Source: Escherichia phage Seurat. From it: 56,776 bases of DNA. Position 1 is the stretch's first letter; the number at the start of each line of letters is the position of its first letter. Below are positions 54,449 through 56,776 of this stretch, piece after piece. The position numbers and the translations under genes are program-made. The DNA lies in sequence record NC_027378.1; one strand, 5' to 3'. The notes under the pieces were generated by a model. It saw only the letters and a list, made by a program, of their open reading frames with translations. It had not been told where the DNA came from and ran no database searches.

Positions 54449-54510
54449 TTTTCTTGCTATCACATAACCCTTCATTGTATTGTGTACCCATCGAATAAGA
54501 GGGGTACACA

Positions 54511-54696
54511 ATGACCAAACTATACGCCGGATTGTTTTTATTTGCGACGTTAATGTTCGCTGGGCTTTATACCTATACAGTAGTCGAACAACCTTCCACG
54601 GTTATCCGAATCTTTGCAAGTACAGGGCTTTGCATCTGTCTTATTCTATTTGTTTTATGCATTGTTATTATCCAAGACCAAAGGAAAGTTAAATGA
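54511..54696 (+). CDS. holin-like small membrane protein (2 TM)
   Basis: 61 aa, two TM helices, basic C-terminus QDQRKVK; RBS AAGAGGGG. Confidence 0.5.
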   Translation: MTKLYAGLFLFATLMFAGLYTYTVVEQPSTVIRIFASTGLCICLILFVLCIVIIQDQRKVK

Positions 54697-55157
54697 CCAC
54701 AATTGCGTTTGATGGAAAAGTATTAGCTGCGGACCGTGGCGTTATGCGCGGGGAAGCTGTGACTGCTTATAAGAAAGTTCATAGCGTGAATGGACATCGT
54801 GGACGGTTTTTACTGGGCTTGTGCGGTTTGACGGCATTTACCGATCAGGTGTTGCGTTATTTTAATAGCGCGGAACCTGTTAAGTTCCCTGATATTAAAC
54901 TTTACAGCAAAGATGATGATTACGGGCAAACTTGCGGTCTTGCTGTCACTCCGGAAGGTACTTGCCATTTTATTTATAATGATGGTACTTTGAGCGAGCC
55001 CATGCTGGATGGATGGGGATCTGAGGGTAGCGGTTGTGTGTTTGCTGCTGGCGCATTAGCTGCTGGTGCAAGTGCAAGCGAAGCTATTGAGCTGGCAATT
55101 AAACACACCACATGCGCATTCCTGGGAGTTGATACAATATCATTTGAGGGTTTTTAA
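54693..55157 (+). CDS. HslV/proteasome-like Ntn-hydrolase (putative Thr peptidase)
   Basis: N-terminal MTTIAFDGKVLAADRG (Thr after Met), YKKV, GSEGSGCVFAAGALAAG...SASEAIELAIK colinear with HslV. Confidence 0.55.
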   Translation: MTTIAFDGKVLAADRGVMRGEAVTAYKKVHSVNGHRGRFLLGLCGLTAFTDQVLRYFNSAEPVKFPDIKLYSKDDDYGQTCGLAVTPEGTCHFIYNDGTLSEPMLDGWGSEGSGCVFAAGALAAGASASEAIELAIKHTTCAFLGVDTISFEGF

Positions 55158-55500: not shown

Positions 55501-55938
55501 ATGGCACTTCAACCTCGTGGTATTCGTAATAACAATCCAGGCAATATTCGCTGGGGTGATAATTGGCAGGGCTTAGTTCCTGCTGATAAGCGAACCGATA
55601 AATCTTTTGCTCAATTCACGCAACCGATTTACGGCATTCGTGCGCTAGCGAAAATCCTGACAAACTACACCAAACGTGAAGGCTTACCCAATGTGGGTAA
55701 GAAAAACATCGACACTGTACGTGAAATTATCGCTCGCTGGGCACCGCCTAACGAAAACGATACGGAAGCGTATATTCGCTCTGTTGCCAAAGCAATTGGT
55801 GTTCAACCTAACGATCCAATTAATGTCTTCGACAAGGCAATTATGTCAGGATTGGTGAAAGCAATCATTCGTCATGAAAATGGCATGATGCCCTATACCG
55901 ACGACGTAATTAACCGCGCTATTGCAATGGTACTTTAA
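55501..55938 (+). CDS. hypothetical protein, positional candidate endolysin
   Basis: Start reset to the ATG at 55501 (RBS GGAGG); lies between holin-like and spanin genes; no catalytic motif recognised. Confidence 0.35.
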   Translation: MALQPRGIRNNNPGNIRWGDNWQGLVPADKRTDKSFAQFTQPIYGIRALAKILTNYTKREGLPNVGKKNIDTVREIIARWAPPNENDTEAYIRSVAKAIGVQPNDPINVFDKAIMSGLVKAIIRHENGMMPYTDDVINRAIAMVL

Positions 55939-55974
55939 CTGACGGGGCGTTAGCCCCTTTTATTTGGAGGGAAC

Positions 55975-56319
55975 ATGTTCAATTCACCCAACGAACATTG
56001 GGCAGTTCTAGCGGGGTTTGCGTTTATCTCCCTCATTGGGGGAGCTCTCGGTTATGTCATGCGTACAATAGACGCTGGTAAGAAAGTACGGGCAAGCATT
56101 GCATTTCTTGAAGGCTTATCCGCCGCTTTCTTTGGCGTTATAATGTATGCGATCTACAGGGAGTTTAACATCAGCCTTTGGTTCGCTTTTGGCCTTGCTG
56201 GCCTATTTGCTTGGGCAGGTTCACGTGCTACGCTAAAAGCCCTAACGTCGCTTATAGCTTCACGGACAGGGATCAAACTCGATTCAGGGGACTGCAAACA
56301 TGAAAACGATTCTAAATAA
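55975..56319 (+). CDS. membrane protein (3 TM), holin-like
   Basis: 114 aa; three hydrophobic helices; RBS GGAGGG; just upstream of the spanins. Confidence 0.45.
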   Translation: MFNSPNEHWAVLAGFAFISLIGGALGYVMRTIDAGKKVRASIAFLEGLSAAFFGVIMYAIYREFNISLWFAFGLAGLFAWAGSRATLKALTSLIASRTGIKLDSGDCKHENDSK

Positions 56320-56776
56320 CTTCTTCGGTTTTATAAAAACTAAACCGCGTCTGTTTATCGAGTATTTGATGATCGGCGCGGTTGTGTTTTTATGCGGGGT
56401 GGCTGCATACTTGTGGTCACAGAACGAGCTTAGCAAAACTAATTTAAATCATGCTGAGCAAAGACTAACTGTTGTAGAACAGGACAATGCAAAGCTGGGC
56501 GAAGCTGTTGTATTTCTTGCATCCCAACGGGAGAAGGATACTGAATCCTATCGAAAATTGGCTTCAGCAATTGAAAGTGAGCAACATAACCACAGGTTGC
56601 TTCAGGACAAATTAAAAGCACTGGAGAAAAGCAATGCCGACGTCAAAGCTTATCTTAATGAGCGTGTTCCTGATGATTTGCGCAGGCTGCTCGACGGAGA
56701 TACAACCTCCACCACCGCCGCAGATAGTGAAGATAAAACTTCCGGCTCATCTGTTGGTAGAATGTCGGGAAGTTGA
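56300..56776 (+). CDS. i-spanin (Rz-like)
   Basis: N-terminal TM helix then charged coiled-coil periplasmic domain; embedded +1 frame lipoprotein ORF. Confidence 0.65.
   Translation: MKTILNNFFGFIKTKPRLFIEYLMIGAVVFLCGVAAYLWSQNELSKTNLNHAEQRLTVVEQDNAKLGEAVVFLASQREKDTESYRKLASAIESEQHNHRLLQDKLKALEKSNADVKAYLNERVPDDLRRLLDGDTTSTTAADSEDKTSGSSVGRMSGS
56634..56776 (+). CDS. o-spanin (Rz1-like lipoprotein), 3'-truncated at the window end
   Basis: +1 frame inside the i-spanin gene; MPTSKLILMSVFLMICAGCST signal/lipobox-like start then PPPPPQ; no stop before the window end. Confidence 0.55.
   Translation, partial: MPTSKLILMSVFLMICAGCSTEIQPPPPPQIVKIKLPAHLLVECREV

Follow-up and report, generated by a model that had tools for sequence, protein, structure and literature searches.

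A PPH-type proteasome homologue encoded upstream of the lysis cassette of Escherichia phage Seurat

The DNA analysed here, referred to below as the window, is the 56,776 nucleotide sequence of Escherichia phage Seurat (NC_027378.1), and towards its right-hand end it carries a gene for a 154-residue protein that is the subject of this report. The gene lies in a tightly packed string of plus-strand genes, with an AGGA motif upstream of its ATG, and its translation is the protein (MTTIAFDG...SFEGF) that had been quoted in an earlier reading of this DNA made without database searches, hereafter the sequence-only reading. In order, the string encodes a SLOG/YpsA-like protein, a 156-residue protein, a C39-like protein, a 61-residue protein with two predicted transmembrane (TM) segments, the 154-residue protein, an 86-residue protein, an endolysin, a LydA-type holin and an Rz-like spanin (Table 1). 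The stop codon of the spanin open reading frame (ORF) ends at position 56776, the last base of the window, and in complete genomes the spanin gene is followed by those for the terminase small and large subunits (terS and terL) and the portal. The 154-residue protein was found to belong to PPH, a family of proteasome homologues of tailed phages, and is predicted to be a threonine peptidase of the proteasome type.

Escherichia phages KS_A8, CAjan and several BASEL isolates, members of the genus Seuratvirus (subfamily Queuovirinae), match this region of the window at 97-98% identity. Copies of the protein with 100% identity occur in more than 20 deposited phage genomes; it is present on 128 contigs and is already public (Seurat AIW03947.1; CAjan AJT60571.1) under a variety of names: 'peptidase HslV family' in RefSeq CAjan (gp86) and the KS_ phages, 'putative protease' in GenBank CAjan, 'ATP-dependent protease HslV' in Hafnia phage yong3 and 'proteasome subunit alpha type-2' in ECP2304. 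Neither the gene nor its annotation nor its family is new, and as a discovery it is ordinary. Some of the records are themselves shifted or mislabelled. In that of CSP1C (PQ202980.1) the product names are off by one coding sequence, such that 'HslV' stands on the 86-residue ORF, 'endolysin' on the holin and 'holin' on the spanin, and in the yong3 record the endolysin carries the label 'capsid protein'. The sister genus Nonagvirus was represented by an 83-residue protein of Enterobacteria phage 9g (X2KU94 in BFVD), which aligned with 61 columns of the PPH model at 34% identity and may be a truncated remnant of the gene.

The sequence-only reading had proposed that the product is a proteasome/HslV-like Ntn (N-terminal nucleophile) hydrolase, a proposal that could be checked by profile hidden Markov model searches for the family and by structure prediction. 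Searches with the single protein were uninformative: NCBIfam gave no HslV match, PADLOC gave no relevant match, so that there is no link to known defence systems, and a phmmer search of the PDB returned noise only. The profile searches gave significant matches. PHROG 1040 ('peptidase HslV family') matched the protein over its whole length (E=5.4e-32), and profiles built from 21 and from 100 homologues found solved HslV chains (E=2.7e-9 and E=9.9e-10 respectively), followed by the Betaproteobacteria proteasome homologue (BPH) and then by archaeal and eukaryotic proteasome beta subunits. An AlphaFold2 model built from the 21-sequence alignment was of high confidence (predicted local distance difference test, pLDDT, 94.8; predicted template modelling score, pTM, 0.89), and when it was compared with the PDB using Foldseek the top matches were solely HslV, proteasome beta and BPH structures, with a probability of 1.00. 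The model thus predicts the alpha-beta-beta-alpha Ntn fold with an N-terminal nucleophile, closest to the proteasome-type members, in agreement with what had been proposed. Only 54 of 100 relatives reached E<=0.01 against curated proteasome/HslV models, and the relationship is one that is visible by profile and structure methods and not by single-sequence ones. The family to which the profiles lead is large, an exhaustive search giving 11,471 cluster representatives at E<=1e-3 and 7,918 (50%-identity clusters) at E<=1e-10; the best 150 matches were nearly all 140-156 residues long and aligned from residue 1, end to end, and the median length of the relatives was 149 residues (n=166).

The predicted active site was assessed in an alignment of 167 sequences with roughly 25-35% identity to the window protein. 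Its Thr2, Asp14, Lys28, Gly45 and Gly112-Ser113-Gly114 (precursor numbering) correspond to Thr1, Asp17, Lys33, Gly47 and Ser129 of the proteasome, and conservation at these positions was complete or nearly so, with the exception of Ser113 (Table 1). The suggestion that the nucleophile is a Thr placed directly after the initiating Met was also upheld, as residue 2 was Thr or Ser in every sequence and the N-terminus read [M/V][T/S] in 163 of 166 relatives; the other three contained an internal MTT or LTT and look like miscalled starts. Residue 2 rather than residue 3 is indicated as the nucleophile because position 3 is variable (T, V or C). Threonine is a permitted P1' residue for methionine aminopeptidase, and so the inferred removal of Met1 should suffice to expose the nucleophile. 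Codon comparisons within Seuratvirus showed 13 synonymous and no non-synonymous changes relative to KS_W4 and SD04, and 42 synonymous and 6 non-synonymous changes relative to ECP2304, a pattern that indicates strong purifying selection on the gene.

A PPH family was described in 2021 by Fuchs et al. as the first truly viral proteasome homologue, comprising proteins of about 140 residues from tailed phages and prophages that fall in group I, radiating from BPH and next to HslV, and that have no propeptide, no helix H2 and no C-terminal S12/H5 elements; the published set includes the representative WP_042125023.1 (PMC8665760). In the alignments of the window protein to HslV a gap occurs at the H2 helix of HslV, and in the AlphaFold2 model the chain stops five residues past the strand at 146-149, without a C-terminal helix. 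By its published defining features, all of those tested being present, the window protein fits PPH.

Table 1. Features of the window around the PPH gene and within its product (residues in precursor numbering; conservation counts from the 167-sequence alignment)
Feature	Position	Strand	Details
YpsA/SLOG-family protein, 130 aa	53155..53547	+	Pfam PF10686 YAcAr, E=4.9e-18
Putative C39/papain-like cysteine peptidase, 141 aa	54023..54448	+	phrog_4049; Peptidase_C39 N-terminal match, E=0.034 (weak)
Perfect palindrome/hairpin	54478..54513	+	ATTGTGTACCC-N11-GGGTACACAAT; RNA minimum free energy -20.1 kcal/mol, z=-3.1
Small protein with two predicted TM segments, 61 aa	54511..54696	+	phrog_22841 only (unknown-function PHROG)
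PPH-type proteasome homologue, 154 aa	54693..55157	+	
PPH Thr/Ser2, predicted nucleophile after Met removal	residue 2		167/167
PPH Asp14, catalytic	residue 14		166/167
PPH Lys28, catalytic	residue 28		167/167
PPH Gly45, oxyanion	residue 45		167/167
PPH Gly112	residue 112		167/167
PPH Ser113	residue 113		143/167
PPH Gly114	residue 114		167/167
PPH helix H1	residues 47-58		AlphaFold2 secondary structure
PPH loop replacing H2	residues 59-79		acidic; only a 3-residue turn in the AlphaFold2 model
PPH helix H3	residues 115-123		AlphaFold2 secondary structure
PPH helix H4	residues 128-138		AlphaFold2 secondary structure
ORF, 86 aa	55158..55418	+	starts on the base after the PPH TAA; phrog_23528 (unknown function)
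Endolysin, first gene of the lysis cassette	55501..55938	+	phrog_873, E=4.7e-63; CAjan gp88 annotation
Terminator-like GC-rich hairpin and T-run	55939..55957	+	GGGGCGTTAGCCCC TTTTATTT
Holin, LydA type	55975..56319	+	PF16083, E=4.8e-10 (above gathering score); phrog_785, E=8e-25
Rz-like i-spanin	56300..56776	+	phrog_5975, E=3.4e-62; phrog_89 Rz-like spanin, E=1.4e-11

The region that replaces H2 bears directly on whether the protein could work with the host unfoldase HslU, as had been suggested from the sequence. In HslV a very short pore loop follows H2, and the basic cluster Arg86/Arg89/Lys90 is remodelled by HslU (PMC5777263). The loop of BPH, in contrast, is long and acidic; BPH lacks a partner unfoldase, and pull-downs with it did not recover HslU (PMC5777263, PMC8665760). 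Members of the PPH-like family have, in place of H2, a segment of 10-22 residues (median 17). Beyond a conserved Pro, 30% of this segment is Asp/Glu, as against 12% over the whole protein, and its net charge is negative in 79% of members; the sequence in the window protein is ...KFPDIKLYSKDDDYGQ. In composition this loop resembles that of the unfoldase-independent BPH. No AAA+ unfoldase is annotated in the CAjan genome, nor did one occur in any of the 16 neighbour clusters that recurred most often across 80 viral loci. The replacement of the basic cluster by an acidic loop, together with the lack of such a gene among the CAjan annotations and the recurrent neighbours, argues against canonical docking to HslU, and pairing with the host enzyme is disfavoured.

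Self-association was explored by fusing three copies of PPH with 25-residue Gly/Ser linkers, the 21 homologues being fused in the same way so that the alignment stayed paired. The best of the resulting AlphaFold2 models, run without a control, had a pTM of 0.69 and a pLDDT of 76.8 despite its 50 disordered linker residues, which is at most suggestive of self-association. The most conserved segment outside the catalytic positions was a face of small residues on H3 and H4 (A118, A121, G125, A128, A131 and A135). As H3 and H4 mediate the contacts between rings in the proteasome superfamily (PMC8665760), this conservation is compatible with retained ring-ring contacts. The alternative raised by the sequence-only reading, of a self-compartmentalised peptidase, is plausible.

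The position of the gene was then considered across phage lineages, as the sequence-only reading had regarded its placement beside lysis genes as unusual. There were 140 confirmed relatives in IMG/VR viral contigs, with terminase, portal and capsid genes on their flanks, and for 80 loci, with relatives at 26-38% identity, all ORFs were clustered and opposite-strand clusters overlapping PPH were discarded as shadow ORFs. The recurrent same-strand neighbours were the terminase small and large subunits, portal, head-morphogenesis protein, scaffold and major head protein, and further the head-tail adaptor Ad1, head-closure protein Hc1, Neck1 and tail terminator. Five arrangements were repeated, namely terS-terL-PPH-x-portal, MCP-Ad1-PPH-Hc1-Neck1 (MCP, major capsid protein), PPH-terS-terL, terS-PPH-terL and portal-PPH-head morphogenesis; examples of junction placement are loci L012, L015, L024, L068 and L073 (within IMG/VR L006-L083). 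A packaging, head or connector gene was directly adjacent in at least 13 of 48 non-redundant groups, within 3 kb in at least 23 and within 6 kb in at least 29, counts that are lower bounds because only 13 clusters were annotated. In the terL-PPH-portal arrangement PPH was always followed by a 146-residue phrog_10057 protein, labelled 'DNA methyltransferase'. Thus relatives adjoin, or sit inside, the terminase, portal, head and connector genes, two genera-level relatives share the order PPH-lysis-terminase, and the placement in Seuratvirus is not unusual; it is the family norm, that of a co-oriented accessory gene at late-operon junctions.

Among the closer relatives the local order was also kept. 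Hafnia phage yong3, whose PPH is 63% identical, has the same gene order as the window, and Providencia phages of the genus Craquatrovirus (PPH 39% identical) encode SLOG-like, C39-like, PPH, holin, spanin and terminase proteins in that order, so that PPH, lysis cassette and terS/terL follow one another in both Seuratvirus and Craquatrovirus. The 130-residue SLOG protein, which is labelled 'GTP-binding domain' in PHROG-based records, is likewise kept upstream of the C39-like gene in Craquatrovirus. The 141-residue protein encoded two genes upstream of PPH has invariant Gln8, Cys14, His88 and Asp103, spaced as in C39/papain-like cysteine peptidases, and gave no solved-structure match by sequence search. 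Its Craquatrovirus homologue (L085 3531-4004; 26% identity, E=1.6e-8) lies directly 5' of PPH and overlaps its start, placing two putative peptidases side by side in those phages.

The gene immediately upstream of PPH in the window, that for the 61-residue protein, is probably the one that had been termed holin-like. It matched no holin family in Pfam or PHROG and is not adjacent to the endolysin gene, and the LydA-type holin was found three genes downstream of PPH; the earlier designation is therefore not supported. The 61-residue ORF is conserved upstream of PPH in Seuratvirus relatives, and its stop codon overlaps the PPH start (ATGA), suggesting that the two are translationally coupled. 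This coupling is not universal, as two metagenomic Seuratvirus-like genomes carry an extra 72-residue ORF between the two genes (L088 1286-1504 and L089 1286-1504). On the other side, the 86-residue ORF is conserved after PPH in Seuratvirus, and yong3 has a 41% identical homologue at the same place.

A perfect hairpin precedes this group of genes. It spans the Shine-Dalgarno sequence of the 61-residue ORF and the beginning of its start codon, and occurs once in the window. Four diverged Seuratvirus-like phages (PPH 63-70% identical) share the exact stem sequence and differ in the loop and flanks, which makes the hairpin a candidate regulatory element heading a unit of the 61-residue, PPH and 86-residue genes. 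The stem shows no covariation, and the element may be either an RNA hairpin for translational control or a DNA operator. A second, terminator-like hairpin lies in the 36-nt gap between the endolysin and holin genes; the inside of a lysis cassette would be an odd site for a terminator, and the scan that gave it was at background level overall. The late-module placement of PPH across lineages suggests late expression, and judging from gene order PPH is probably expressed late, together with the lysis and packaging genes.

From these results it is highly probable that the window protein is a PPH and that it is catalytically competent. In the mechanism that we propose, host methionine aminopeptidase would remove Met1 to expose Thr2 as the N-terminal nucleophile, after which PPH would cleave as a threonine peptidase in the classical manner of the proteasome. 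Proteasome-type subunits have no activity in isolation, and for this reason a homo-oligomeric ring assembly, as in HslV and BPH, is probable. The assembly would probably use neither HslU nor a phage-encoded unfoldase; the acidic loop on the pore side may help to select substrates, as proposed for BPH, and a restricted set of phage or host proteins would be cleaved, probably during late expression. The mechanism as a whole, from Met removal through homo-oligomer and unfoldase independence to restricted late substrates, we consider evenly balanced between right and wrong.

Several observations weigh against this interpretation. The single protein scored 15.4 bits (E=0.015) against the Pfam Proteasome model (PF00227), falling short of its gathering score of 22.4. 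The other four of the five fused-trimer models reached a mean pLDDT of only 52-64, and loss of structural elements may, according to Fuchs et al., yield novel quaternary structures (PMC8665760). BPH, the closest solved relative that has no partner ATPase, was inactive on the model substrates tried, though epoxomicin binds it covalently (PMC5777263). With regard to timing, PPH stands at the end of a long run of small rightward genes, for which early or middle expression is also conceivable, and scans for consensus promoters and terminators around the gene gave background levels only. Finally, searches of the literature for experiments on such phage proteins turned up only the 2021 bioinformatic paper and passing remarks in genome announcements, and no biochemical or genetic characterisation of a PPH. 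The papers on Seuratvirus, BASEL and Vid5 do not mention the gene.

The low Pfam score would also fit a catalytically dead remnant, or a purely structural protein retaining the fold. The complete or almost complete conservation of the catalytic positions in 167 members (25-35% identity), strong purifying selection and 7,918 cluster representatives at E<=1e-10 make this extremely unlikely, and a dead enzyme was rejected because the catalytic residues are invariant. That PPH is a functional HslV substitute, an HslV-like dodecamer which docks to host HslU and redirects ATP-dependent proteolysis, is very unlikely, since H2 and the basic cluster that such an HslU-dependent surrogate should have are missing. 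A morphogenetic or virion-associated protease, one that processes scaffold, capsid or connector proteins or else travels inside the particle into the next host, would explain the placement among packaging, head and connector genes: in diverse loci PPH is flanked by terL and portal, by portal and the head-morphogenesis gene, or by Ad1 and Hc1, and CAjan has a scaffold and a major head protein and no annotated prohead protease. Scaffold-plus-capsid systems without a protease are common, however, and in this phage the lysis cassette and terminase separate PPH from the head genes. The late-module position moreover takes at least five arrangements, as would be expected of a mobile accessory gene (moron) more than of a fixed component of morphogenesis, and no virion proteomics was found in the literature. 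A prohead-protease role is unlikely, and is kept as a low-probability rival because the position varies between lineages.

A further alternative is that the Thr nucleophile serves a purpose other than bulk proteolysis, in a highly specific processing enzyme or a connectase-like transpeptidase or ligase that works on a single defined protein of phage or host, either as a monomer or as a small oligomer. The proteasome-like family does include a monomeric ligase, connectase, and loss of H2 may alter or abolish ring formation (PMC8665760); support from the fused trimers was inconsistent, and BPH is without detectable general protease activity (PMC5777263). Connectase is nevertheless structurally distant, and its insertion is absent from the window protein, so that we regard this as quite unlikely.

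With the restricted, unfoldase-independent peptidase retained as the preferred interpretation, a tentative and rather doubtful extension is that PPH is a self-assembling mini-proteasome, carried as a mobile accessory gene of late operons, that destroys a specific host factor or processes a phage protein late in infection. In that case terminase, portal, capsid and lysis proteins would be produced alongside it, and a defence sensor able to recognise these late products would be one possible host target; in Seuratvirus the small membrane protein and the adjacent C39-like peptidase might work together with it. Such a role would be the first assigned to any viral proteasome homologue, in a family of about 7,900 50%-identity clusters (E<=1e-10). 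The Seuratvirus phages, among them CAjan and several BASEL isolates, infect E. coli K-12 and so offer a convenient and genetically tractable model for PPH function, for which the late-module association, the acidic BPH-like loop, the invariant active site, the conserved hairpin and the C39-like neighbour can guide experiments.

Compared with HslV (ClpQ, the peptidase of HslUV; MEROPS T1B), the window protein is about 20 residues shorter and only 17-21% identical; HslV has H2 with the basic Arg86/Arg89/Lys90 pore cluster where the window protein has the acidic loop, and it has a cognate ATPase, HslU, whereas no hslU gene is annotated in CAjan. The likeness to HslV that had been noted from the sequence thus holds for the fold and the Thr nucleophile, and the active site would work like that of HslV and BPH, but the protein is not an HslV orthologue, lacking H2, S12/H5 and a match to curated HslV models. 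BPH (PDB 5ovs, 5ovu) keeps both H1 and H2 at about 185-200 residues; it is cellular, is constitutively expressed from stress-related operons and forms tetradecamers (PMC5777263). Unlike the proteasome beta subunits (PF00227; MEROPS T1A), the window protein has no alpha subunits, propeptide, H2 or H5. With PPH as described by Fuchs et al. in 2021 it shares the compact size (154 residues, against a median of 149 among relatives), the Thr directly after Met without a propeptide, the absence of H2 and of the C-terminal S12/H5, the conserved catalytic triad and oxyanion Gly, a sequence that adjoins BPH and HslV, and an origin in tailed phages, here a Seuratvirus, with relatives on viral contigs. 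In nothing essential does it differ from PPH, and the Seuratvirus branch stands at the long end of the family by virtue of small insertions at residues 33-35 and 71-73.
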